Shown: positions 3,871-38,190 of the stretch, piece after piece | Numbering within the stretch: position 1 is the stretch's first letter | How the letters are laid out: each line of letters opens with the position of its first letter | Assembly (NCBI GenBank): GCA_934130325.1 | Contig: CAKOYA010000002.1 | Coordinates: 16,098 to 80,097 of the forward strand | Length of the DNA stretch: 64,000 nucleotides | Direction of reading: 5' to 3' | Origin: an uncultured Clostridia bacterium | GTDB taxonomy: Bacteria; Bacillota; Clostridia; TANB77; CAG-465 | Program-made: the position numbers and the translations under genes | The notes under the pieces: model-generated | Databases searched by the model: none | What the model saw: the letters and a program-made list of their open reading frames with translations, nothing else | Told to the model about the DNA's origin: nothing

Positions 3871-3968
3871 TTATCCACAGAGTTATCCACAGGTGTTGAT
3901 AACTTTTCGACACAATAGTAAAATTTTACAAACTGTTTTACATAAATATTGTGGATTCTTGTGAAACA
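3871..3968. promoter_or_regulatory. second DnaA-box cluster upstream of dnaA (oriC left part / dnaA autoregulation)
   Basis: TTATCCACA at 3871-3879 and 3883-3891. Degenerate boxes TGTTGATAA at 3894-3902 and TGTGGATTC at 3950-3958. TTCGACA (Spo0A-box complement) at 3906-3912. Confidence 0.8.
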
Positions 3969-4208: not shown

Positions 4209-4296
4209 TGTATTACTTTGTATTTTAATTTTTTGTAAAATAAGATTTGAAATTTGTCGAAAGACATAGTATATTGCGTTTTAGGAGGTGTAGCAA

Positions 4297-22784: not shown

Positions 22785-22803
22785 CTTTATTATGTAAAAA
22801 TAA

Positions 22804-22832
22804 TGTCGAAAATTACTAGAAATAATGTCGAA
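22804..22832 (+). promoter_or_regulatory. two direct Spo0A-box matches (TGTCGAA) 22 bp apart
   Basis: AATAATGTCGAAA repeated at 22798-22810 and 22820-22832, 30-60 bp upstream of the -35 of the spo0E-like gene. Confidence 0.55.
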
Positions 22833-22861
22833 ACTTGCGTTCGATTTTTTGACAACAAATA

Positions 22862-22890
22862 TTGACAAGGTAAGTCGTAAGTGGTATAAA
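22862..22890 (+). promoter_or_regulatory. sigma-A promoter of the spo0E-like gene
   Basis: TTGACA (22862-22867), 17-bp spacer, TATAAA (22885-22890). Confidence 0.55.
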
Positions 22891-22914
22891 TATGTTGTAG
22901 AGGAGATGACTAAT

Positions 22915-23076
22915 ATGGTTGTTGAAGAGATTAATTTGTTGAAAAAACAATTAGAGAGTCAAATAATAAAAGAAGACTCATATGATTTAATATATGAGAC
23001 TAGTGTAAAAATAGATAAATTATTAATAGATTATTATAATCAATTAGGTTCAATTAAAAAAGATTTAAACTACTAA
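22915..23076 (+). CDS. Spo0E-family aspartyl-phosphate phosphatase (sporulation regulator)
   Basis: About 53 aa: INLLKKQLESQI...SVKIDKLLIDYY, a Spo0E-like helical hairpin. The track ORF starts at 22825, upstream of the predicted promoter. ATG 22915 follows GAGGAG. Confidence 0.6.
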   Translation: MVVEEINLLKKQLESQIIKEDSYDLIYETSVKIDKLLIDYYNQLGSIKKDLNY

Positions 23077-23476
23077 GATTAATATTCAAGAATATCATAC
23101 CTAGCACTATTATCAGGCTATAGTTGCAATTATTATCAAGTAAAAGCAAGAATATTATTCCAATAATAATAAGATCGTCAATTTCAAAATTAAATCCAAA
23201 TAATGATATAGTACTATCTTGTACTGAAAAATTTGAATTTCTTTTTTTAATGTTTTCATTTTTATTTTCTTGTTTATCATTTTTGTTAGTATTTTCATTA
23301 AAATTTTGAGTATTGGTTTTATTGGAATCTTCTGTAGTTTCTAATTTTTTACTGATTTCTTTGTATTCAATATCGGATGTTTTTTTTAATTCTTGGTACA
23401 AGGTAGGATTATATCTATTTATATTGTTATAATAATTATTAGTATATCTATTATAATATGGATATGTGTTAAACAT
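23054..23476 (-). CDS. hypothetical Asn/Tyr-rich protein with C-terminal TM anchor
   Basis: Low-complexity N/Y/K-rich N-terminal part. Hydrophobic C-terminus LIIIGIIFLLLL...IIVLGMIFL. Confidence 0.45.
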   Translation of the reverse strand: MFNTYPYYNRYTNNYYNNINRYNPTLYQELKKTSDIEYKEISKKLETTEDSNKTNTQNFNENTNKNDKQENKNENIKKRNSNFSVQDSTISLFGFNFEIDDLIIIGIIFLLLLDNNCNYSLIIVLGMIFLNINLSSLNLF

Positions 23477-23941
23477 TTAATCACTACCTTTACTACCAAA
23501 AATATCTATTGCATCTATTAAAGAGAGTATGGTCATATATTCCCCAAATTTATCTTGTCTAGATTTCCTTAAAAATGGTTTTAATGATCTTAGTAGATCT
23601 TTTTTAGGATCATTTTTAGTAAAATTAGATATTAATCTTTGAATTTTGAAGATTGTATTAGGATCTATATCACCAAAATTAAAACTGTTATTTTCTTCTT
23701 TTGATTGGTTATTACCATTAAGGTTCAAACTACTTAGTATGCTTGAAAGATCAATATTATTTAACATAGATTGCGGATTATCTATATTTAAATTGGTATC
23801 TGGGTTAGTATTAGTGTTATTATTTTCTTTCAATTCTGATTGTTCAGTATTGTCTTGAGTGTTAATCTTTGCTTGAATACTTTGTATTAAATCATAAATA
23901 TTTTTTTGATTTTCTTGATTTAAGGATTTTGTATTATCCAT
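23477..23941 (-). CDS. hypothetical Asn-rich protein
   Basis: ORF tightly packed between two neighbours in the same operon. The C-terminal ~50 aa are not low-complexity. Confidence 0.45.
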   Translation of the reverse strand: MDNTKSLNQENQKNIYDLIQSIQAKINTQDNTEQSELKENNNTNTNPDTNLNIDNPQSMLNNIDLSSILSSLNLNGNNQSKEENNSFNFGDIDPNTIFKIQRLISNFTKNDPKKDLLRSLKPFLRKSRQDKFGEYMTILSLIDAIDIFGSKGSD

Positions 23942-23943
23942 AA

Positions 23944-24123
23944 TTATGTATTTGAATTATTATTTTTAGTTTTAAGCATTCCAACAAGATTATTTAAATC
24001 ATCACTAGACATATTTTGTACCATTTTGCTTACTTGATCAAGTTTAGTTTTATCTATATTTGCTAATAGTTCAACTAATTTTGAATTTAAAATATTTCCC
24101 ATATCATTTGAATTATTATTCAT
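23944..24123 (-). CDS. hypothetical small Asn-rich protein
   Basis: AAGGAG RBS 9 nt before ATG 24123. First gene of a 3-gene minus-strand unit. Confidence 0.4.
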   Translation of the reverse strand: MNNNSNDMGNILNSKLVELLANIDKTKLDQVSKMVQNMSSDDLNNLVGMLKTKNNNSNT

Positions 24124-24215
24124 ATTATTCATCTCCTTAACTTTGTTATATATTAATTATATGCTACTAATAGTAAAACTGTGCATAAAAATAATATATA
24201 TATAACTTAATTTTT

Positions 24216-24222
24216 TGTCGAA
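24216..24222 (+). promoter_or_regulatory. Spo0A-box match in the divergent intergenic region
   Basis: TGTCGAAATTTGCG matches TGTCGAAACTTGCG at 22826-22839 in 13 of 14 positions. Confidence 0.45.
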
Positions 24223-24251
24223 ATTTGCGATGAAAAAATATATAAAATATA

Positions 24252-24280
24252 TTGACACATAACATAATCTGTGCAATAAT
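24252..24280 (+). promoter_or_regulatory. sigma-A promoter of the VirB4/Tad-like operon
   Basis: TTGACA (24252-24257), 17-bp spacer, TGCAATAAT extended -10 (24272-24280). Confidence 0.6.
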
Positions 24281-24304
24281 GTATATACAAAAAGGAGGTA
24301 TATC

Positions 24305-24814
24305 ATTAAATTTAAAGAAATAGATAACTTATATAAAATTAAAAATATAACAGATGATTATATTGTAACTCAGATAAATAATAGCATTGAAAATGTATAT
24401 ATTTATGAAATAATTCCTGTACTATTACTTGACATGTCTAGTAATATTCAATTAAATATAATTAATATATATAATCAATTTTTAAGGCTATGTAATTTTA
24501 ACTTTGAAATCTTAATTTTAAATAAACGACTAGATATAGAAAAATATATAAAAGAATATTACCTTAATTATAGTAAAATTTCTGAGGATATATATTTAAA
24601 ATATATTCAAGACATTAGTAATAAATTAAGGCAGGAAGATATGTATGAAACAAAAATGTATATTATAGTTTCAGATAATTTTAAAGTTAAATCTAGTATT
24701 GGAGATTATGAAAAAGTTATATACAGACTTGATGAGATTGGATGTAAAGTAAGAAAAATAAATACAAAAAAAGAGTACGAAGAATTATTATATAAGTGTA
24801 TAAATAAGGTTTAG
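24305..24814 (+). CDS. VirB4-type ATPase N-terminal-domain protein (separate polypeptide), probable ATT start
   Basis: The frame is open from 24263. A perfect AGGAGG (24294-24299) lies 5 nt before ATT 24305. There is no ATG/GTG/TTG until 24434, which has no RBS. The N-terminus IKFKEIDNLYKIKNITDDYIVTQINNSIENVYIYEIIP resembles Gram-positive VirB4 N-termini. Confidence 0.55.
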   Translation: MKFKEIDNLYKIKNITDDYIVTQINNSIENVYIYEIIPVLLLDMSSNIQLNIINIYNQFLRLCNFNFEILILNKRLDIEKYIKEYYLNYSKISEDIYLKYIQDISNKLRQEDMYETKMYIIVSDNFKVKSSIGDYEKVIYRLDEIGCKVRKINTKKEYEELLYKCINKV

Positions 24815-24826
24815 AGGAAAAAAATA

Positions 24827-26575
24827 ATGAATAATGAAAAAATTAAGTATAGTGTATATCCAGCTTGTTTAGATAATACAAATTTTAAATGTTTAAAGTT
24901 AGATGATAAGTATGTAATTAGCATAGATATATATGATTATCCATCTTATATTACTTTTTTAGAGATAATTGAATCTATAGATAAAAATAATATGTACGAT
25001 ATGAGCATATATATTCAAAAACAGGATACATTAAAAGTATTAAAAGAATTATCATATTATATATCAAGTTCAAAATCTGAAATAAAAACTTCAAATGAAA
25101 ATCAAATAGATATTGATATATTAAATAAACAAGAATTAGATGCAAGAAATTTAAGGAAAAATATACAAATTAATAATGAGGAAGTTTTTAAATTAAATAT
25201 TATTATAACTTTTTATTCTAAAAATAAAGAAGAATTATTTTCAATAGTAAAATTGTTTCAAAGTAAACTTTTTTCACATCAAATTTATTCAAATATAACT
25301 AATTTTAGAAATTTAGATTCATATTTAGCAACATTACCATTAAACAATTATTCTAATAATATAATGAAAAAATTATATAAAAATATTACTACATCTGCTT
25401 TGTGTAATATATTTCCTTTTTATACCAAAACTGTTTTTGATAAAAATGGAATAGTTTTTGGATATACAAAAAATGATAATAGATTATGTATAATTGATAT
25501 TTTTGACAATAATTATTTAAACTCAAATGTTACTATATTTGGTAGTAGCGGAAGTGGAAAATCATACTTTACAAAATTATTAATACTTAGACATTTTTTA
25601 AAAGGAAAAATACAATACGTATTTGATTTAGAAGCAGAATATATTTTTTTAGCTCAAAAACTTGGAATACAAATATTAGACTTTAGTAATAACTTGAAAA
25701 AAGAATATATTAATATTTTTGAAATTACTAAAGAGGATATTTCAATTAATGGAAATAATTTTTTTGAAGAAAAGATACAAGAAATTATTTTATTTATAGA
25801 GAGTATTGTACATTTAGAAGAAGTTGAAAAGGAAAGTTTAAAAACAGCTATTATTAAAGTATATTCAGAAAAGTATATAAATGGAAATTTGGAAAGTTTA
25901 TATAAAAAAAATAGTCAAAATTCTATTTATGTAGAAAAAACTATAAAATCTAATAATGAATTTCCTTGTTTAAAAGATATCGTTAAATATTTAAAAAATA
26001 ACAAAACAATAAAAAAGATTAATATTATAATAAATGAGTATGAAATATTTTCGGATCATTCCACTATAGATTTCAATTTTGGATGTGTATTTTGTACAGC
26101 TAATTTAAGCGGAGAAAAATTAAGTATTATAACGCAATATTTGTTACGTAAAATAAATAAAAATTTAAAAAGTCAATTATATACTAAAGAAGTTTTAATA
26201 TATATAGATGAAATTTGGAAATATATAAATTACAAGGATAATGCAGTTGGTATGTTAATATCGCAAATGTATAAAACAATAAGAAAGAAAAAAGCAAGTA
26301 TTATATGTATTACACAAGATATGTCCGATTTTTTTAAACTTGAAAAAGGAAGTTATGGTAAGAGTATACTAAATAATTCTGAGTTTAAAATATTTTTTAA
26401 AATTGAATTTTCAGATACTGAATTATTTGAAAAATTAAATATAATGACAAAACAAAATTTGGAAAAAATAGTTAGGCTTGAAAAGGGGAGTATGTTATTG
26501 GGTTTTTGTAATTGTGCATCAATTTTAAAAGTAAAGTCTAGTGATTATGAAAATGAGTTGATAGAAGGAGGATAA
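24827..26575 (+). CDS. VirB4/TrsE-like type IV secretion ATPase (C-terminal ATPase part)
   Basis: Walker A FGSSGSGKSYF, Walker B LIYIDEIWKYI, RKKKASIICITQDMSDF, ILNNSEFKIFF (typical VirB4 signature blocks). Confidence 0.8.
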   Translation: MNNEKIKYSVYPACLDNTNFKCLKLDDKYVISIDIYDYPSYITFLEIIESIDKNNMYDMSIYIQKQDTLKVLKELSYYISSSKSEIKTSNENQIDIDILNKQELDARNLRKNIQINNEEVFKLNIIITFYSKNKEELFSIVKLFQSKLFSHQIYSNITNFRNLDSYLATLPLNNYSNNIMKKLYKNITTSALCNIFPFYTKTVFDKNGIVFGYTKNDNRLCIIDIFDNNYLNSNVTIFGSSGSGKSYFTKLLILRHFLKGKIQYVFDLEAEYIFLAQKLGIQILDFSNNLKKEYINIFEITKEDISINGNNFFEEKIQEIILFIESIVHLEEVEKESLKTAIIKVYSEKYINGNLESLYKKNSQNSIYVEKTIKSNNEFPCLKDIVKYLKNNKTIKKINIIINEYEIFSDHSTIDFNFGCVFCTANLSGEKLSIITQYLLRKINKNLKSQLYTKEVLIYIDEIWKYINYKDNAVGMLISQMYKTIRKKKASIICITQDMSDFFKLEKGSYGKSILNNSEFKIFFKIEFSDTELFEKLNIMTKQNLEKIVRLEKGSMLLGFCNCASILKVKSSDYENELIEGG

Positions 26576-26576
26576 A

Positions 26577-27794
26577 ATGAATGTATTAGTAGCATTAAAT
26601 AATAAAGAAATTAAATCTAAAATAGATGACGTATTTAATGAAAGAGTATATTTGTATGACATTGATTTAAAGGAAAATGTGATTGAATTTTTATCTAAGA
26701 ATAAAGGTGAATATATAGTTGTTACAAGAGATAATTTACCCGGTAATATTGATGAAAAATTATATATAAAACAAATGAAAATTGCTAATAAAGATATAAG
26801 AATTATATATATTGTTGAAAAATTAACAAATGAATATAAGGAATTCCTATTTGCTAATGAGGTATTTAATATAATTGAAGGAGAGGTAATAAATGTAGAT
26901 GAGATTATTTCAAGTATAATTGAAGATGAAAAAGTTGTATATTTAGATAACAATATTAAAGTAAATGAACCCGCTGAAAAATATGTAATAAAAAATAACG
27001 CTGTTTCAAAGGAAATAATTGCAGTTTATGGAACAAGTGGAAGTGGAAAATCAATAGTATCAAGTATAATCTCAAAAAATATTTCTAAAAATTTTAATCT
27101 CAAAGTATCATTATTAGATATGGATATTCAAAATCCCTCAATCGATATAATTAATAATATTAATCCTAACGAATCATCATTAACTCAAATAGTTGAAAAT
27201 ATTGATAACTCAAACGAGGTAAATGATATAATTTCAAAATATATGATAAAGGATGCAAAAAATAAAAATTTATGGTATATAACAAATAATTGTAGTTTAT
27301 TTGAATGCCAAAATAGACTATCAAATAAATATTATGAAAAAATATATGGAAGTGTATATAATAAATCTGATTATATAGTAATTGATTTACCATCTTCACC
27401 ATTTTTGGATGTAGTTCCATATACTTTAACAATAGCAAGTAAAATAATGTTTGTAGTAAATGCAAATTATATGAGCATAAGGCAGGCTATAAAATATATT
27501 GAATTAATAACAAAGTTTTGGGACAATGAAAATGGTAAAATATATATCATTGTAAATAAAATGCAAAGAGACTCGCTAGATATAAAGCAAATAGAATCAT
27601 TACTTTCTGGATATAAAATTATAGCAATATTTGATTATTATAAGGAAATGGAAGGCTATATAAATGGTGGAATAAGTGAATTAAATGTTAATACTAATTT
27701 AGATAAACTTTATAATATTTTGGGATTGAAAGAAAATAAAAGTAATGGGATTATTAAATTTATAAATAGGATTGGTAAAAAATATGTTGATTAA
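26577..27794 (+). CDS. TadZ/CpaE-like ParA/MinD-family ATPase with degenerate receiver-like N-domain
   Basis: N-terminal REC-like fold without the DD pair (VLVALNN). P-loop AVYGTSGSGKS. MDIQNPS switch region. Confidence 0.7.
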   Translation: MNVLVALNNKEIKSKIDDVFNERVYLYDIDLKENVIEFLSKNKGEYIVVTRDNLPGNIDEKLYIKQMKIANKDIRIIYIVEKLTNEYKEFLFANEVFNIIEGEVINVDEIISSIIEDEKVVYLDNNIKVNEPAEKYVIKNNAVSKEIIAVYGTSGSGKSIVSSIISKNISKNFNLKVSLLDMDIQNPSIDIINNINPNESSLTQIVENIDNSNEVNDIISKYMIKDAKNKNLWYITNNCSLFECQNRLSNKYYEKIYGSVYNKSDYIVIDLPSSPFLDVVPYTLTIASKIMFVVNANYMSIRQAIKYIELITKFWDNENGKIYIIVNKMQRDSLDIKQIESLLSGYKIIAIFDYYKEMEGYINGGISELNVNTNLDKLYNILGLKENKSNGIIKFINRIGKKYVD

Positions 27795-28956
27795 TCCTTT
27801 TGAAGTAAAGTATAGCCCAAAAAAATTTAAAACTAAGAAGAATACTGTTGAAAGTGTGGATATTGATGAAGTTATAAATTATATAACTGTTAATTATTCA
27901 AGATATATAAAGGATGAAAATAAAAAATTTTTTGAAGATAAAATTAAAGAATATATCTGCTTAAAATATTTTTTACCAGATAATTTTAACTATACTGATA
28001 TAATTAATAAAGTCATAGATAAAATATTTGGATATGGAATATTACAAAAATATATAGATAATAACGAAATCACGGATATAAGAGTAGTTCAATATGACGT
28101 TGTATATATAAAGCAAATGGGAAAATGGAAAAAAGTAGAGGAAAGTTTTTGTAGTAGGGAAGAGTTTAGAGAATATATTATTTATACTATAACTAAAAAT
28201 AATAAAACTATTAATTATGATAATCCAATTATAGTAGTAAGTGATAAGAAAAATAAATTAAGATTGGAGGCGGGAATTTCTCCAGTTAATGCGCTAGATG
28301 ATAGTTTAGTTATTAGAATACACAGATATACTGATAATTTAACATTGTTAGATTTGTTAAACCAATACAAAATGTTAGATAGAATGTCATATAAAGTGCT
28401 TATAGAAATTTTAAATAAATATAAGAATATTATTATTGCTGGAAAGGGAGGAAGTGGAAAAACTACTCTATTAAGAGCAATATTAAAACAGATTCCGGAT
28501 AATGTTTCAGTATCTGTTAATGAAGAAACAAGTGAATTATATATAAAGAATAAGAATTTAATTCAAAGAGAAGTAATAATTGACAAGGAGAAAAATAATG
28601 TAACATTAGAAAAATTATTGAAACATAGTCTGGTAATGTCAAATGATGTATTAGTAGTAGGTGAATTAAAAGGGGGAGAAACTTCTATTTTTATTGATGC
28701 TATAAGTACTGGACATATGGGTCTTGCAACTGTTCATTCTAATTCTATTTATAATGTGATAGATAGACTTACTTTACTTTTTAAAAGAGATAAAAAAGCT
28801 GAAAAATATAGTGAAGAGTTTATACAAAATTTATTATATAATAGCATCAATTATATTATATATATGAAGGATTTTAAAATAAGTAGTATAGGTAAAGTAA
28901 GCGTAAATAACAAAAATAAGTATTATGTTAAGGAGATTTACAAACTAAATGTTTAA
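27784..28956 (+). CDS. CpaF/TadA/VirB11-family secretion ATPase
   Basis: ITDIRV, Walker A AGKGGSGKTTLLRA, VVGELKGGE, GHMGLATVHSNS (T2SSE family blocks). Confidence 0.85.
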   Translation: MLINPFEVKYSPKKFKTKKNTVESVDIDEVINYITVNYSRYIKDENKKFFEDKIKEYICLKYFLPDNFNYTDIINKVIDKIFGYGILQKYIDNNEITDIRVVQYDVVYIKQMGKWKKVEESFCSREEFREYIIYTITKNNKTINYDNPIIVVSDKKNKLRLEAGISPVNALDDSLVIRIHRYTDNLTLLDLLNQYKMLDRMSYKVLIEILNKYKNIIIAGKGGSGKTTLLRAILKQIPDNVSVSVNEETSELYIKNKNLIQREVIIDKEKNNVTLEKLLKHSLVMSNDVLVVGELKGGETSIFIDAISTGHMGLATVHSNSIYNVIDRLTLLFKRDKKAEKYSEEFIQNLLYNSINYIIYMKDFKISSIGKVSVNNKNKYYVKEIYKLNV

Positions 28957-29743
28957 AAATTTAATAAAAATTTTTGTAAATAGATTAAAATGTTTTAAAG
29001 AAATTGAAATGAATCTAGAAAATTTAACTAAAAAGCTGTCAAAAAAAGGAAAATTATTTAATTCATATACCATTATATACACATCATTTATTATATCAAT
29101 TATATGCTTTTTCATTTTATTTAATTATTCAAAATTAATAATTAGTTCTATTTTATTTTCAGTAATTATACTTTTTTTTCCATTAACTATTATAGAAATT
29201 GTAGTAAATTTTATAGATTCGAAGATAAAAAAAGAATTTATTCTTTTAATAATTAATCTCCAAAGTTTTTCAAAAAGTACAAATAATATTATTTTAGGGT
29301 TTAAAGAAATAAAAATACATGGATATATAAAAAGGTATATAGATAATTTTAACACGTTAATAAGTAGTGGATTTAGTATTGGACAAGCTTTTGATAATTT
29401 AATCAAAGAAATTAACATCAGAGAAATTGGGAATATTATATATTTGCTAAAATTAAATTATATAAATGGTGGGGATTCATATGAAATTTTAAAAGAATCA
29501 CATAATTATTTATTTGAAATGGAAAAAATAAAACAAAATGAAATTGAAAAAAAATTTAATATTTTAGCTATTTTTATGGTTATATTAGCAATAAATATAT
29601 TTTTTTTAGTATTTTTTGTACTAAAAAATAATGAATATAAAAAAATACTGTTAAATACATTTTTTGGAAAAATTATATTGGATTTTAATAGTTTTATATA
29701 TTTTTTAGCATATTTTTATTTAAAAAAATTAATTAAGGAGTGA
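28949..29743 (+). CDS. TadB/TadC-like (GspF family) platform membrane protein
   Basis: TM - cytoplasmic helical domain - TM topology. Directly downstream of and overlapping the CpaF-like gene. Confidence 0.6.
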   Translation: MFKNLIKIFVNRLKCFKEIEMNLENLTKKLSKKGKLFNSYTIIYTSFIISIICFFILFNYSKLIISSILFSVIILFFPLTIIEIVVNFIDSKIKKEFILLIINLQSFSKSTNNIILGFKEIKIHGYIKRYIDNFNTLISSGFSIGQAFDNLIKEINIREIGNIIYLLKLNYINGGDSYEILKESHNYLFEMEKIKQNEIEKKFNILAIFMVILAINIFFLVFFVLKNNEYKKILLNTFFGKIILDFNSFIYFLAYFYLKKLIKE

Positions 29744-29747
29744 TAAT

Positions 29748-30479
29748 ATGGAAAATACTTTAAGTTTTAATAACTTAAATAATGAAATTAATTTAGATAA
29801 AAGTTTAAATCTTGAGGTAAAAAATACTGAAAAAGCTTTTTCTAATATTGTACAAAACACAATTGGAAAGGGAGCAGATTATGTTATAAAAACTATGCCG
29901 GTAAGTGAACCTATTAAGAATATTTTACTTGATGTAAGAAAATCGTTTGAAAGTAGAGATTTTAAAAAAATATTAAGTACGGCTATTCAAAGTAGTATTG
30001 AAGAGGGAGTAAAATTTTTAAATATTCCTAAAAATTGTTTAAGAGATATTTCAACTATAGTAAATGCATCATTTAAAGGAGGTTTGAAAGAGGCTGTTTC
30101 GGCAACAATAGATATTGTAGCAAATAAATATTTAAAAAATAATATTTTTTACAATTTTGTAAAAGATTTTATAAATAAAACAAAGGCGTTTGTCTTTAAT
30201 AGAGATTTTAAGGATAGAATAGATAAATCAGTGCAAAATTTACTGAAAAAAGTGGAAAACTATAAAGAAAAGTGCAATGAGTGGTATGAAAGTTATAATA
30301 AATTGGATTTTAATAAAATTAACGATTTAGCTAAATCATTAAATAAGGAAAAGAAGTTTGTAAATTCAAATTCAGAGTGTTTGAAACAAAATAATATAAT
30401 ACAAAATATGACAAAATTAGTAAATGTAAAAAAAGATAAATTATCAAATATTCAAATGCAAATTTGTAGCAATTTATAG
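29748..30479 (+). CDS. hypothetical soluble helical protein, last gene of the operon
   Basis: RBS AAGGAG. No TM segment, signal peptide or recognisable motif. Confidence 0.5.
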   Translation: MENTLSFNNLNNEINLDKSLNLEVKNTEKAFSNIVQNTIGKGADYVIKTMPVSEPIKNILLDVRKSFESRDFKKILSTAIQSSIEEGVKFLNIPKNCLRDISTIVNASFKGGLKEAVSATIDIVANKYLKNNIFYNFVKDFINKTKAFVFNRDFKDRIDKSVQNLLKKVENYKEKCNEWYESYNKLDFNKINDLAKSLNKEKKFVNSNSECLKQNNIIQNMTKLVNVKKDKLSNIQMQICSNL

Positions 30480-30526: not shown

Positions 30527-31744
30527 ATGAAAATACAAAAAGTTGATGGTAATGAAAATGAAAAAAACGAAATTACAAAAAGACAAATTATTATACTTAT
30601 TATACTTTTATTAGTTTTAGTTTTTGTAATTTATCAAGCATATATTTTAACTCTATATACTTTTGGAAAAAAAGAAAAGAAACAATTAAAATTATATAAT
30701 TATTGTGATAGTATAATATCTAAAGTAATGGGAAAAGAAATTATATTAAAGGAAGAGTATTCACTTAAATTTGCAGGAATTGGTGATATTAGCGCATCTG
30801 AAAAATTAGGAAACTTTAAAGTTTTACAAAATTATAATAATATATTAGGATTAACTCAAGTTATAGATAAATTAAATACATATGATATTATAACTGCCAG
30901 TGTAAGTGGATCAATATTAAAAGAAAATTATGATTTTGAGGGGATAATGAAATTACTAAAAAATTCTAATATTTCTACTGTTGCTCTTGCAAATTACAAT
31001 ATATTTAATAAAAATGAAAGTGGATTAATAAAGACTATTGAGAATTTAGATGAAAATGGAATTAATCAAATTGGGGCAAATAGCACTAACACAAGAAAAG
31101 ATCCAATTATAATAAGTAAAAATCAAATATCTATAGGATTTTTATCATATACTACAAAGACAAATCAAAAATTAAATAAAAATAATACAAATATGGTAAA
31201 TATATTTTCAGATGAGAATTTAAAATACGATTTGGAATATTTAAATTCAAAAAATGTAGATTTTATTGTTGCATATTTAAATGTTCCTACAAATAATTCT
31301 AACGTTATTACATATGAGCAAAAAAATATAGTAGAAAAACTTTTTTTATCCGGAGTTGACGTAGTACTTGGAACAGGGAATACTAATGTACAGGAACAAA
31401 TAGAAGAAGTGGAAATAGATAAACCTGTATACGCAATATATAGTTTAGGAAATTTTTATGGAAATTTTGAAGATAATGAAGAAAATTTTAGTGTAATTGC
31501 AAATATTGAATTTAAAAAGAATGTAACAAAAGATCAAGATGGAAATTTAAAGCAGGTAGAAAAGGATATGATTATGAATGAACCTATTACTGTGTTAAAA
31601 GATATTAATAAAAATAAAATTGAATATATTATGTTGAGTGAAGAAATAAAAAGATATGATGAAGGAAATTCTAATATTACATTAGAATATTATAATAAAA
31701 TAAAAAATATGGAAAATAGGCTAAAAAACATTATAGATCCATAA
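30527..31744 (+). CDS. CapA/PGA_cap-family metallophosphatase-like membrane-anchored protein
   Basis: N-terminal TM. LKFAGIGDI and ALANYN...ENGINQIGA blocks resemble CapA family motifs. Confidence 0.55.
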   Translation: MKIQKVDGNENEKNEITKRQIIILIILLLVLVFVIYQAYILTLYTFGKKEKKQLKLYNYCDSIISKVMGKEIILKEEYSLKFAGIGDISASEKLGNFKVLQNYNNILGLTQVIDKLNTYDIITASVSGSILKENYDFEGIMKLLKNSNISTVALANYNIFNKNESGLIKTIENLDENGINQIGANSTNTRKDPIIISKNQISIGFLSYTTKTNQKLNKNNTNMVNIFSDENLKYDLEYLNSKNVDFIVAYLNVPTNNSNVITYEQKNIVEKLFLSGVDVVLGTGNTNVQEQIEEVEIDKPVYAIYSLGNFYGNFEDNEENFSVIANIEFKKNVTKDQDGNLKQVEKDMIMNEPITVLKDINKNKIEYIMLSEEIKRYDEGNSNITLEYYNKIKNMENRLKNIIDP

Positions 31745-33778: not shown

Positions 33779-34117
33779 ATGGATTTTAATAAAAAATTAA
33801 ATGAATTGGCCCAGAGTTTAAAAAACTCAAATGAATATATAGAATTTATAAATTTAAAAAATGAGGTAAAAAAAGATGAAAATGCTTTTAATATGCTAAA
33901 GGAATTTAAAAGTAAACAAAAATCTCAACAGTTAAAATATCTAAATGGTAGTGAAACATCAAAATCAGAGGAAACAGAATTACAGAATTTATACTCAATT
34001 TTAGTTCAAAATGAGAATATAAGAAAAATGCTTGAGTGCGAAATGAAAATAAATATATACTTAGCTAATGTTCAAAAAGTAATGGGAGACGCAATTAAGG
34101 AGATAGTTGATTTTTAA
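33779..34117 (+). CDS. YlbF/YmcA family regulator
   Basis: 112-aa helical protein with family-typical N-terminal LAQSLKNSNEYIEF...K motif. Confidence 0.6.
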   Translation: MDFNKKLNELAQSLKNSNEYIEFINLKNEVKKDENAFNMLKEFKSKQKSQQLKYLNGSETSKSEETELQNLYSILVQNENIRKMLECEMKINIYLANVQKVMGDAIKEIVDF

Positions 34118-34743
34118 TGAGTTTTTTAGATAAATTTAAATGTCTAGGCAAGCAGAATAATGATAGTGCATTAAATCAAATTTCAAGTACATTGCCAGTT
34201 AATGAAGAGATTGCAAAAACAATTTTAAATAAATTAGGAAATAAAACTTCTAAGGTAGTTTTTGATAAAGATATTAAAAATAGTTATTATGTATATTTTA
34301 AAGATACTATATATATATCAGAAAGTAGAAGAAACAACAAATATACAAGAGTATGTCTTATAGCACATGAATGTGCACATTCGATGCAATCTAAGGGGTT
34401 ACAGAGGGTTAACTTTATATTATCAAATATTGAGATTTTAGCTTTTATTATTTGCTTTATATTCATTTTAGTTTCAAAAATAGATAATATATTTTATATT
34501 TATTTGTTATTTTGCATAATTTCAATTATTCCTAGGGGAATCTTGGAAGTTGATGCAATAAAGAAATCTTTAAATATATCATCTAATTATTTAAAGCCAA
34601 TTTTAAATAATAAAGATTATAATTTAATAATGTATGCATATACAAGGCAAATTAAGTTTTTAATGCCTTTTGCAATTATTACATTATTTTTTGAAAAAAT
34701 ACTTAGATGTTTAATACTTTTTTTATTAACATTTTTAATATAA
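34117..34743 (+). CDS. membrane zinc metallopeptidase-like protein (HExxH)
   Basis: HECAHSMQ motif followed by several TM helices. Confidence 0.55.
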   Translation: MSFLDKFKCLGKQNNDSALNQISSTLPVNEEIAKTILNKLGNKTSKVVFDKDIKNSYYVYFKDTIYISESRRNNKYTRVCLIAHECAHSMQSKGLQRVNFILSNIEILAFIICFIFILVSKIDNIFYIYLLFCIISIIPRGILEVDAIKKSLNISSNYLKPILNNKDYNLIMYAYTRQIKFLMPFAIITLFFEKILRCLILFLLTFLI

Positions 34744-35033: not shown

Positions 35034-35258
35034 TTGAAATTATCAAAATATAAAAAAAGTATATGTTTATTTTGCTGTATTATAGGTATTATTACTGTAA
35101 TATACAGTATAGTTAATGTAGTAAAAGTATCGAATCAAACTGCTAAGGTAAATGCACTTCCTATAACCAATAAAGTTATAGTAATTGATGCAGGACATGG
35201 GTTACCAGATGAGGGGGCGTTCTTATTGTACAAAAAGAATAAACAACTAACCTTTTAA
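35034..35258 (+). CDS. cwlD: cwlD 5' segment (N-acetylmuramoyl-L-alanine amidase, germination-specific), truncated by the insert after codon 61
   Basis: TTG start after AAGGTGA. Signal anchor, then VIVIDAGHGLPDEGA (Amidase_3 zinc-ligand motif). Downstream of 35218 the sequence is unrelated and stops at 35258. Confidence 0.85.
   Translation: MKLSKYKKSICLFCCIIGIITVIYSIVNVVKVSNQTAKVNALPITNKVIVIDAGHGLPDEGAFLLYKKNKQLTF
35208..35218 (+). repeat. left junction core (attL) GATGAGGGGGC
   Basis: Identical 11-mer at 39776-39786. Confidence 0.9.
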
Positions 35259-36581: not shown

Positions 36582-36624
36582 AAGTTAGTTGCTATCTTTT
36601 TTTATGAAAGGAGAGCAACAAGCT

Positions 36625-38190
36625 ATGGAATACAAAAAGTTTAAAGTAGCAGGATATTTGAGATTATCACAAGATGATGGTGATAAAGAAGTAAGTGATA
36701 GTATAGTTAGTCAAAGAACAATCATAGAGAATAAAATTAAAGAATTAGGAAGAGATTTTGAATTAGTAGATTTCTATATTGATGACGGATATACAGGATT
36801 AAATACAGATAGACCTGCATTCCAAAAAATGTTATTTGATATAGAAAAAGGCATTATAAATACAGTAGTAACAAAAGACTTGTCCAGATTAAGCCGTAAT
36901 AGTTTTGAGGCAAATTATTATATTGAAATCTATTTTTTAGAAAGAAATATAAGGTACATATCAGTTCTAGATAATGTAGATACATATATTAAAAATTCTA
37001 ATAATGATATGATTCAATTTAAAACTCTTATAAATGATTGGTATAGTAAAGATATCTCGAGAAAAGTTAGAACAGCAGTATGGGCTAGAAAAGAGAAAGG
37101 TTTATATTTGGGAGCATTGGCTCCTTATGGTTATGATAAGGCAAAAGAAAATAAAAATCAATTAGTAATAAATGAGAGTCAAGCAAAGGTAATTAGGCTT
37201 ATATTTGATATGTTTGATAATGGGGTTGCAGCAAAAGAAATAGCAGATCATTTAAAAAGACAAAAAATCAAATGTCCTAGTTATTATGATTTTGGTGGTG
37301 CAAGAAGTGGTGAGTATAATTGGAAAAGCGAAACTGTTAGAAGACTATTAAAAAACAAAGTATATTTAGGTCATACTGAATATGGAAAGCGTTTAAATTT
37401 AAGTTATAAATCAAAAAAAGTAAAAACAGTTCCAAGAGAAGATTGGAAGATTGTAGAAAATACTCATGAGCCCATAATTTTTAAAGAGCAATTTGAAAGA
37501 GTGCAAAGAAAATTAGAAATACGAAAAAAAATTAGAAATCCTTTATATGTTTGGGGGTTAAATGGAATTGTATATTGTAAAGAGTGTGGTACTAAAATGC
37601 AAGTTAAAGTAAGGCGAGATAAAAATTACGAAGTAAAATATACAGATTTAATATGTGGTTCTACATATAGAAAAGGAAAAAATATAAGCTGTGAAAGAAA
37701 ATATAAAGCTTTTGCTGAGAAATCTTTTAATAAAATAATTTATGATACTATAAACAAAAAATTAAATAAGATTATAAAGAGTGATAAGTTAAAAGAAATT
37801 ATTGAAAAAAATTATAACAATAATTCTAATAAAGTATTTAATGATAATATTGAGTTATTAAAGAAGCAATTAAAAAAAGTAGAAAATATTATTTCATCTT
37901 TATATATTGATTTAAAAGAAGAAATAATTGATTTAGATGACTATAAAAAACTTTATAAAAGTGAACAAGAAAGAAAATTGTCAATAAAATCTGAAATAGA
38001 AAATTTACAAAATAAAAAAGAGGATAGAGCTAAAATTTCTAAGAAACAACTTATAAAGGTTACAAATGATTTATTAGATTGTAAGAAGTGGACAGCAGAA
38101 ATGTTATCAGAAATTATCTATAATATTCAAATAGATAAAGAAAATCATATTTATATTAATTATAAATATGATATATTTACGGAGGTGTAG
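36625..38190 (+). CDS. large serine recombinase 1
   Basis: The start MEYKKFKVAGYLRLSQDD follows AAGGAGAG. Resolvase catalytic domain (YLRLS..., DDGYTGLNTDRPAF, VTKDLSRLSRN). Recombinase domain. Cys-rich zinc ribbon (CKECGTKM...C). C-terminal coiled coil. Confidence 0.9.
   Translation: MEYKKFKVAGYLRLSQDDGDKEVSDSIVSQRTIIENKIKELGRDFELVDFYIDDGYTGLNTDRPAFQKMLFDIEKGIINTVVTKDLSRLSRNSFEANYYIEIYFLERNIRYISVLDNVDTYIKNSNNDMIQFKTLINDWYSKDISRKVRTAVWARKEKGLYLGALAPYGYDKAKENKNQLVINESQAKVIRLIFDMFDNGVAAKEIADHLKRQKIKCPSYYDFGGARSGEYNWKSETVRRLLKNKVYLGHTEYGKRLNLSYKSKKVKTVPREDWKIVENTHEPIIFKEQFERVQRKLEIRKKIRNPLYVWGLNGIVYCKECGTKMQVKVRRDKNYEVKYTDLICGSTYRKGKNISCERKYKAFAEKSFNKIIYDTINKKLNKIIKSDKLKEIIEKNYNNNSNKVFNDNIELLKKQLKKVENIISSLYIDLKEEIIDLDDYKKLYKSEQERKLSIKSEIENLQNKKEDRAKISKKQLIKVTNDLLDCKKWTAEMLSEIIYNIQIDKENHIYINYKYDIFTEV

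Follow-up and report, generated by a model that had tools for sequence, protein, structure and literature searches.

What kind of system is encoded by an operon that joins a conjugation-type VirB4 ATPase to genes of a Tad pilus, with no pilin, peptidase or DNA-transfer gene beside them? Such an operon lies at positions 24305-30479 of a 64,000-nt stretch of DNA from an uncultured Clostridia bacterium (contig CAKOYA010000002.1; the whole stretch is hereafter called the window), and a first-pass annotation described it as a hybrid of a split VirB4-type ATPase and a Tad-like core. From a computational analysis of the operon, its neighbors and its relatives, we are confident that it is a host-fixed, domesticated descendant of a Firmicute conjugation/Tad-pilus gene set. 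The operon is a derived form of this conjugation/Tad combination, neither a de novo hybrid nor a remnant.

A split VirB4 and Tad-like genes in one operon

The operon consists of six co-directional genes (g1 to g6), as first annotated, separated by gaps of at most 12 nt or by short overlaps: there is a 12-nt gap between g1 and g2, a 1-nt gap between g2 and g3, a 23-nt overlap between g3 and g4, an 8-nt overlap between g4 and g5, and a 4-nt gap between g5 and g6. The genes are as follows.

24305-24814, plus strand: g1, VirB4 N-terminal (TraC-like) domain as a separate gene, 169 aa, ATT start (hhalign; PF26593 in orthologues)
24827-26575, plus strand: g2, VirB4 middle and C-terminal P-loop ATPase domains, 582 aa (NCBIfam, Pfam, hhalign)
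26577-27794, plus strand: g3, TadZ-like ATPase with a receiver-like N-domain of ~125 aa and a MinD/ParA-type domain, Walker A GTSGSGKS (Pfam CbiA/ParA)
27772-28956, plus strand: g4, hexameric ATPase of the CpaF/TadA or archaeal-GspE type (T2SSE), optional (Pfam, NCBIfam, solved relatives)
28949-29743, plus strand: g5, single T2SSF-domain platform protein (TadB-like), optional (PF00482)
29748-30479, plus strand: g6, soluble all-helical protein, 243 aa, specific to the system (AlphaFold)

The first two genes together correspond to one VirB4. In profile comparison by hhalign, g1 aligned with residues 129-285 (probability 93%, E 3e-7) and g2 with residues 338-927 (E 3e-49) of a single 942-aa protein, a PrgI-VirB4 fusion encoded on a Vescimonas plasmid; since the two map consecutively on the fusion, g1 and g2 read as a collinear, split VirB4. 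The orthologues of g1 carry the TraC-like family PF26593, and the first ~185-300 positions of full-length VirB4 models are not covered by g2. The g1 gene has no ATG, GTG or TTG start; its ATT start, 6 nt 3' of a GGAGG, is backed by the N-termini of 27 aligned orthologues (MxKYKDIxxLY...). Over nearly its whole length g2 matched the NCBIfam models VirB4_plasma (VirB4 of the Mycoplasma integrated conjugative element (ICE); E 4.8e-49) and CD1110 (E 2e-41), with scores below the curated cut-offs (142 vs 325 for CD1110, 167 vs 590 for VirB4_plasma, and 104 vs 567 for TraC-F), while in Pfam DUF87 was above its cut-off and P-loop_TraG just under. The VirB4 motifs of g2 are GSSGSGKS, IDEIW, RKKKASIICITQDMSDFF and NNSEFKIFFK, and the key residues of the Walker A, Walker B, RKK/ITQD...DFF and NNSxFKxFFK blocks are invariant among 12 homologues with identities down to 38%. 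Judged by architecture and motifs, g1 and g2 are of the VirB4 family, as a divergent subfamily that scores under all curated cut-offs.

The split is real, as first annotated, and it is no peculiarity of the window genome: VirB4 homologues of ~580 aa are abundant in metagenome-assembled genomes (MAGs) of Clostridia, which makes the split form the rule in the family. Separately, one species (24 independent contigs) has the VirB4 body split again into 448-aa and 167-aa genes (L049:9899-11735, L058/L059:4609-6445), giving a VirB4 in three pieces that may be functional or at an early stage of decay.

The next three genes are Tad-like. The best solved relatives of the g3 profile are MinD (E 1.6e-18) and the ParA structure 3ea0; its N-domain gave weak, sub-threshold matches (E 0.04-0.6), 16 of 23 of them in register to receivers (CheY, RcsB, Spo0F and the like), and the phospho-acceptor Asp is not conserved there. 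A tblastn search of plasmids with g3 gave no match. The CpaF/TadA-type ATPase and the single GspF/TadB-like platform protein of the first-pass annotation were both recovered. The g4 protein matches Pfam T2SSE (E 5.8e-28, 98 bits against a cut-off of 24.9), has archaeal GspE (2oap, E 2e-22) and CpaF (E 1e-18) as its nearest solved structures, along with FlaI and VirB11, and matches the NCBIfam models of VirB11, TadA, TrbB and FlaI, all under their cut-offs. The T2SSF match of g5 is weak in the window (E 0.003), and 21 of 21 orthologues match PF00482 (best E 1.5e-8). Hydrophobic segments of g5 span aa 36-92 and 199-230. At 264 aa, the window g5 lacks the N-terminal transmembrane helix of all orthologues (293-323 aa), and no frameshift accounts for the difference; the membrane module may therefore be weakening in the window genome. 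No transmembrane segment is predicted in g1, g2, g3 or g6, which leaves g5 as the sole membrane protein of the operon.

The last gene, annotated earlier as a 243-aa helical protein, has an all-helical AlphaFold model (pLDDT 88). No match to g6 was found in Pfam, NCBIfam or a sequence-profile search of the PDB, and its model gave no fold match by Foldseek against the PDB and BFVD (best E 0.4-0.6). The g6 family comprises 262 clusters (50% identity) among 1.84 billion representative proteins, nearly all of them stand-alone proteins of ~240 aa, and the profile search of these representatives returned no informative fusion. We also considered g6 as a relative of T2SSF/TadC, and rejected this after hhalign against the TadC-like protein of a related locus (L041) gave a probability of 1.4%.

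Family and structure searches thus agree on the hybrid VirB4 and Tad-like composition, and the parts described as missing were likewise not found. No pilin-like open reading frame (ORF) was present among ORFs of at least 25 aa in 22.6-31.9 kb, a check for hidden pilins that the first-pass annotation had proposed, and this region has no unassigned intergenic room. Flp, TadV and RcpC/CpaB were not recognized among the ORFs of at least 110 aa read over the rest of the window, nor were a relaxase, VirD4, VirB6/B8 or an integrase among the window ORFs, which were mostly read rather than run against family libraries. Within the operon, Pfam and NCBIfam gave no VirB3/PrgI, VirB6, VirB8, cell-wall hydrolase, VirD4 or relaxase, and there is no second T2SSF platform protein beside g5; among the loci examined, one is present only in L041/L063. 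No flanking att-like repeats beyond chance were found, and the only tRNAs lie 11 kb from the operon, with none flanking it. A search of plasmids with the operon DNA gave no match, and the window VirB4 is ~26% identical to those of fecal 'phage' contigs and at most 27.5% identical to the best-matching plasmid VirB4s. By the component sets that define them, the locus is not a type IV secretion system (T4SS), an ICE or a Tad pilus.

Conservation, core genes and ancestry

A locus scan using one genome per species returned 54 loci. About 36 of these (the window clade) share 37-60% g2 identity with the window and the same chromosomal site, in the order two M16 peptidases, a small Spo0E-like gene, three divergent genes, g1-g6, a CapA-like gene and ylbF; they come from 'Clostridium sp. 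CAG:1219', 'CAG:921', and rabbit, human, mouse and ruminant gut MAGs. In the closest unsaturated pair (L003/L026), the ratios of nonsynonymous to synonymous substitution rates (dN/dS) for g1-g6 were 0.17, 0.11, 0.05, 0.11, 0.20 and 0.14, comparable to the ratio of the neighboring housekeeping peptidase in other pairs. The catalytic motifs are invariant. The operon is part of the core genome, lies near the origin and is under purifying selection.

A second clade (~30% g2 identity) has, in its full form, g1-g6 in the same order immediately 5' of gyrA, preceded by mreC-mreD-pbp-minC in some loci and by metG-tatD in another. In a reduced form (L065, L061, L043, L053-55) only g1-g2-g3-g6 are present, between gyrB and gyrA and after dnaA-dnaN-recF wherever the flank was identified (in L065 and L061 by Pfam; in L054 from a GyrB-like C-terminus recognized by eye). 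Across the second clade it is gyrA, rather than minC, that consistently adjoins the operon.

Loss of g4 and g5 is not confined to the second clade. They are absent from 15 window-clade loci as well as from one second-clade branch, always together, and g1, g2, g3 and g6 are kept in all. On a neighbor-joining tree of g2 (midpoint-rooted and unbootstrapped), the loci without g4/g5 fall in about five separate groups, which points to repeated loss. The indispensable core is therefore VirB4, the TadZ-like protein and g6, all predicted to be soluble, and the CpaF-like ATPase and the platform protein, together with the CapA-like protein in the window clade, are an optional membrane module. Whether the six genes travel together, a check that the first-pass annotation had proposed, has a divided answer: g1, g2, g3 and g6 always do, and g4/g5 are optional. 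The suggestion of an envelope-spanning translocation machine is not supported by this comparison, because the part that is always retained is the predicted soluble ATPase set, and the only membrane protein, g5, was lost with g4 in about five branches that kept the soluble VirB4, the TadZ-like protein and g6.

More distant relatives suggest where the combination came from. The loci L041/L063, whose VirB4 is 28% identical to the window g2 in L041 and draws 4457 matches at E < 1e-10, encode a PrgI(VirB3)-like protein, g1, g2, TadZ-like, TadA-like and TadB-like proteins and a second T2SSF protein, and also a 67-aa Flp1-like protein (E 1.4e-5), RcpC/CpaB (E 6.6e-8) and an SLH protein. No other locus gave a match to the Flp, RcpC and TadC of L041. 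L062 is a genuine conjugative element with MobC, a relaxase, a PrgI-like gene, a T4SS pilin, VirD4, an M23 peptidase and ParA; its VirB4 is unsplit (861 aa) and 53% identical to that of L041, and its TadZ-like gene, a g3 homologue, adjoins RcpC. L067 has VirD4 with PrgI-like, g1 and g2 genes. Because L041/L063 hold a complete hybrid and L062 is a conjugative element with a fused VirB4, we take the operon to be an exapted module of conjugation/Tad origin. One could have expected that relatives with the same genes inside a complete conjugative element would make the window locus a remnant; L062, with its relaxase and VirD4, comes part of the way to this, and the window operon is nonetheless no remnant. 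The relatives can be arranged in an inferred reduction series, from a conjugative T4SS plus Tad, through a chromosomal PrgI-VirB4 plus complete Tad, to VirB4 plus TadZ/TadA/TadB and g6, and at last to VirB4 plus TadZ and g6; its direction would follow from the midpoint-rooted g2 tree.

Two of these groups have features of their own. The full VirB3/VirB4 and Tad hybrid of L041/L063/L064 (e.g. L063:174-9692), from an uncultured Clostridiales bacterium (UBA4821), also includes a receiver-like protein, is followed by SLH proteins and may merit interest itself. In L066/L068 (L066:9120-16005, L068:9125-16810), a giant protein (1022-1293 aa) follows the PrgI-like gene and split VirB4 in place of Tad genes, an apparent further recruitment of the same VirB4. 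This giant protein has three AAA+ modules (SpoVK/CbbX-type); SLH-domain proteins follow it and a CotF spore-coat gene lies nearby.

The operon can be compared with four kinds of known system. First, the VirB4/TraC proteins of Gram-positive conjugation systems (MPF_FA/FATA; CD1110, PrgJ) have the same domain order and ATPase motifs, g1 and g2 are collinear with their PrgI-VirB4 fusion, and the sister clade of the operon includes real conjugative elements; however, the window VirB4 is encoded in two genes (three in L049/L058) and scores far under the curated cut-offs, and the operon, unlike a conjugative T4SS, lacks VirB3/PrgI, VirB6, VirB8, VirB1, VirD4 and relaxase and sits at a fixed chromosomal site. 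Second, Tad/Flp (type IVc) and archaeal-type pili share the gene order TadZ-TadA-TadB, the CpaF/archaeal-GspE-like ATPase and the TadB-like platform, whereas the operon lacks a pilin, prepilin peptidase and RcpC and has a single platform protein, a dispensable motor pair, a VirB4 5' and a novel helical protein 3' of the Tad-like genes. Third, in SpoIIIAA-SpoIIIAB of the SpoIIIA-SpoIIQ channel an ATPase of the T2SSE type partners a membrane protein resembling GspF, which sets a precedent for such a pair in a sporulation machine, and the operon occurs in a probable spore former and has a Spo0A-box-like motif at its promoter; yet g4 scores 21 bits against the 281-bit SpoIIIAA cut-off (TIGR02858), no SpoIIIAC-AH-like genes were found in the operon, and spoIIIA is sigma-E dependent rather than driven by Spo0A and sigma-A. 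Fourth, MOBless T4SSs, chromosomal and with a VirB4 but no relaxase, are maintained rather than degraded and have been read as cases of exaptation (Guglielmini et al. 2012, PMC3548315). The operon resembles these systems and the ComB system of H. pylori in having a maintained chromosomal VirB4 without relaxase or integrase, and the MOBless or exapted T4SS fits as the nearest concept for it. ComB and the other known exapted T4SSs keep a membrane channel (VirB6-B10), whereas the operon keeps VirB4 alone, joined to Tad parts.

Promoter, proposed mode of action and alternatives

Two elements precede g1.

24216-24236, plus strand: composite Spo0A-box-like motif TGTCGAAATTTGCGATGAAAA, 15 nt 5' of the -35 hexamer
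24252-24280, plus strand: sigma-A-type promoter TTGACA-17-(TG)cAATAAT, 11 of 12 positions matched

The single sigma-A promoter first annotated for the operon is the top sigma-70-type site in 22.6-34.2 kb, and its TTGACA is conserved in orthologous loci. The composite motif TGTCGAAATTTGCGATGAAAA occurs once in the window (0.02 expected), and 20 of 35 orthologous promoters have it in the same position, where the rest of the intergenic DNA is unalignable. Among second-clade loci, L061 and L050 carry a TGTCGAA-N3-TGTCGAA tandem 9 nt 5' of the -35 element and L065 has one box. TGTCGAA is the Spo0A (0A) box, with TGNCGAA as the regulon consensus. The window has six copies of the 7-mer where two would be expected, with two sites in the dnaA-rnpA intergenic region, two in a 20-nt repeat before the Spo0E-like gene and one at the operon promoter. 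Since both clades conserve composite or tandem TGTCGAA 5' of the -35 element, the sporulation-linked control site that the first-pass annotation considered possible gains in substance, and we regard the chances as evenly balanced that the operon is under Spo0A~P control at stationary phase or sporulation entry. The two intergenic sites (3906-3912, minus strand; 4255-4261, plus strand) lie in the presumed oriC, and rpmH was not located; Spo0A binds at oriC in Bacillus subtilis, to which these boxes bear a likeness.

The operon could work as follows. Transcription from the sigma-A promoter would be activated by Spo0A~P. By analogy with TadZ, g3 would act as a positioning hub that recruits a VirB4 hexamer (g1 and g2) to a membrane site such as the pole or septum, with g6 as a lineage-specific adaptor. 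Where present, the CpaF/TadB motor (g4/g5, with the CapA-like protein) would be recruited as well, as an optional membrane-proximal motor. VirB4 would then use ATP to extract or translocate a substrate other than a locus-encoded pilin. The Gram-positive VirB4 PrgJ binds DNA, ComB is a VirB4-based DNA uptake system, and transformation in Micrococcus is Tad-dependent; because PrgJ binds DNA and VirB4 and Tad systems were recruited for DNA uptake elsewhere, DNA or nucleoprotein would be the favored substrate. Such a DNA-handling mechanism is doubtful in our estimate. We think it unlikely, too, that VirB4, the Tad ATPase and the novel-fold g6 would together form a new Spo0A-controlled developmental machine that moves DNA or protein at the pole or the sporulation septum. 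The explanation as a whole, in which identity, Spo0A control and DNA handling are blended, we judge somewhat better than an even bet.

Several observations weigh against parts of this explanation. On the side of control, 15 of the 35 window-clade loci lack the motif, including the closest relatives of the window (L003, L005 and L026), and the case for Spo0A binding consists of a 7-mer and its conservation. On the side of g3, the matches of the receiver-like N-domain are sub-threshold and the g3 profile did not match CheY in hhalign; g3 is nearer to MinD than to any solved TadZ, its Walker A is classical rather than deviant, and its single-sequence AlphaFold model reached a pLDDT of 36.7. As for the mechanism, the PrgI/VirB3-like partner found in the sister clades has no match in the window clade and is absent from the gyrA-linked clade too, which makes the route of VirB4 to the membrane questionable; no channel, cell-wall-spanning component or substrate was identified for the operon; the DNA substrate is proposed by analogy; and all carriers of the operon are uncultured.

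Four other explanations were weighed. The operon could belong to an ordinary Tad (type IVc) pilus, with VirB4 as an add-on and with genes elsewhere in the genome supplying the pilin, the prepilin peptidase and a second platform protein. This would suit the T2SSE, T2SSF and TadZ-like trio, and the Flp1-like pilin, RcpC and second T2SSF protein directly 3' of the same genes in L041/L063, but we consider it improbable: g4/g5 were repeatedly lost while VirB4, g3 and g6 persist under purifying selection, there is one platform protein and no recognized pilin or peptidase in the 64-kb window, the window g5 is without the helix of its orthologues, and g6 stands in place of the TadC/Flp/RcpC block. A link to ordinary Tad does exist, in that L041/L063 keep the Flp-like pilin, RcpC and the second platform; the window operon is a derived, domesticated form of the conjugation/Tad combination.

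We assign an equally low probability to a division or segregation device, in which the MinD-like g3 replaces MinD and the origin region is acted on by VirB4, which belongs to the FtsK-HerA superfamily. MinD is the best solved relative of g3, one sub-clade has the operon after mreC-mreD-pbp-minC, exactly at the place of minD, and the site is always near oriC/gyrBA/parAB. Adjacency of minC and g1 was down-weighted as a division link, since gyrA is the constant second-clade neighbor, and it may be incidental. Furthermore, the signature-lysine Walker A of MinD is missing from g3, whose N-terminal domain is TadZ-like, g3 homologues sit with RcpC and Flp genes, and we know of no VirB4 that pumps chromosomal DNA in cis.

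More improbable still is a system in which a captured conjugation ATPase serves against plasmids or phages or in entry exclusion. HerA/VirB4-type ATPases do recur in defence systems, the operon has three NTPases, and g2 matches the PADLOC mad8 model (E 1.1e-22). This match is, however, generic: other MADS components gave negligible matches, neither a nuclease nor an effector domain turned up, the operon is core-genome at a fixed origin-proximal site rather than in a variable island, and the Spo0A-box promoter and the Tad ancestry would be left unexplained. Last, a decaying ICE remnant, which the conjugative ancestry of VirB4, an outgroup that includes true conjugative elements, and the loss of VirB3, VirD4, relaxase and pilin could suggest, is very hard to reconcile with constant position and gene order over dozens of species down to 37% VirB4 identity, dN/dS of 0.05-0.20, invariant catalytic motifs, a conserved promoter motif and the lack of a recognized integrase, att repeat or flanking tRNA; the first-pass annotation had also held a decayed conjugation module to be less likely, and synteny over more than 50 species-level genomes agrees. 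A domesticated conjugation/Tad module thus remains our preferred reading of the operon.

Neighboring genes, chromosomal setting and meaning

The operon is flanked as follows.

22795-23076 (true start probably near 22906), plus strand: Spo0E-like phosphatase gene; 14 of 14 orthologues match PF09388 (best E 7e-8)
23054-24132, minus strand: divergent Asn-rich trio (62, 154 and 140 aa, the last with C-terminal transmembrane segments); synteny in 36 loci
30527-31744, plus strand: CapA-like (PGA_cap) membrane-anchored protein (Pfam PGA_cap, E 1.6e-23)

The CapA-like gene begins 47 nt 3' of g6, no terminator was found between the two, and an N-terminal transmembrane segment is predicted in its product. 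Within the window clade, 15 of 19 loci with g4/g5 have the CapA-like gene, as do 2 of 14 without; the second clade lacks it. The tie to the operon that the first-pass annotation had left open is supported by this co-variation, on which we group the gene with the g4/g5 sub-module; its product is a probable accessory of that module in the window clade.

The divergent Asn-rich trio is a conserved neighbor in the window clade only (dN/dS ~0-0.24) and is absent from the second clade. Its 154-aa protein has the motif LKPFLRKSRQDK...EY and its 62-aa protein the motif SKL.ELL..IDK.K.EQVS.MVQNMS; neither the window copies nor nine orthologues gave a match in Pfam or NCBIfam. A promoter element of the trio, TTCACA-N15-GCATATAAT, looks conserved by eye in the orthologous intergenic regions. 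Membership of the trio in the system is uncertain.

A 20-nt tandem repeat (22795-22814 and 22817-22836) lies 5' of the Spo0E-like gene, with TGTCGAA in each copy, and the boxes before this gene suggest a putative feedback loop on Spo0A. On the other side, ylbF is followed by a gene for a 208-aa membrane protein (34117-34743, plus strand) with an HExxH motif (AHECAH), which may be a membrane-embedded metalloprotease; a homologue stands 3' of ylbF in most window-clade loci that include the region.

The window (G+C ~25%) covers the replication-origin region of a Clostridia-class chromosome, and the operon starts ~20 kb from dnaA. The origin-proximal genes are given below.

0.9-3.8 kb, minus strand: dnaN, dnaA
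4.5-12.5 kb, plus strand: rnpA, yidC, jag, mnmE, mnmG, rsmG, soj, spo0J

The window also has spmA/spmB and a spore photoproduct lyase gene, named by eye from their translations alone, and a cwlD-like amidase gene, confirmed against an Amidase_3 orthologue; given these genes, the host is probably an endospore former. The gene for the CwlD-like N-acetylmuramoyl-L-alanine amidase is interrupted, with residues 1-62 at 35034-35219 and residues 57-241 at 39770-40327 (plus strand). The 4.55-kb insert holds two tandem large serine recombinases (36589-38190 and 38191-39711) and a minus-strand 187-aa gene, and the syntenic gene in L002 is uninterrupted. We liken the insert to the 'skin'-type intervening elements, which are cut out of sporulation genes in development. 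The two serine recombinases (36.6-39.7 kb) are part of this separate element within the cwlD-like gene and not of the operon.

Type IV secretion is considered to have a single ATPase that is both ubiquitous and defining, VirB4. The operon is an extreme case of its exaptation, in which VirB4 was long kept without channel, coupling protein or relaxase and was joined to Tad parts, beyond what ComB-type systems show. A full-text literature search found no published description of a chromosomal VirB4-Tad operon. For annotation, the loci carry a warning, as CONJScan/TXSScan would label them partial T4SS or Tad and they are neither. The graded series of relatives offers rare material on how molecular machines are dismantled and re-used. 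A VirB4-Tad operon sits here in the best-conserved region of the chromosome (dnaA-gyrB-gyrA or parAB) and may be under Spo0A control. If the reading as a developmental machine is true, the operon would be a previously unrecognized, origin-linked component of sporulation or stationary phase in a large group of uncultured gut bacteria and, if its role is developmental, a new sporulation player in abundant uncultured gut Clostridia.

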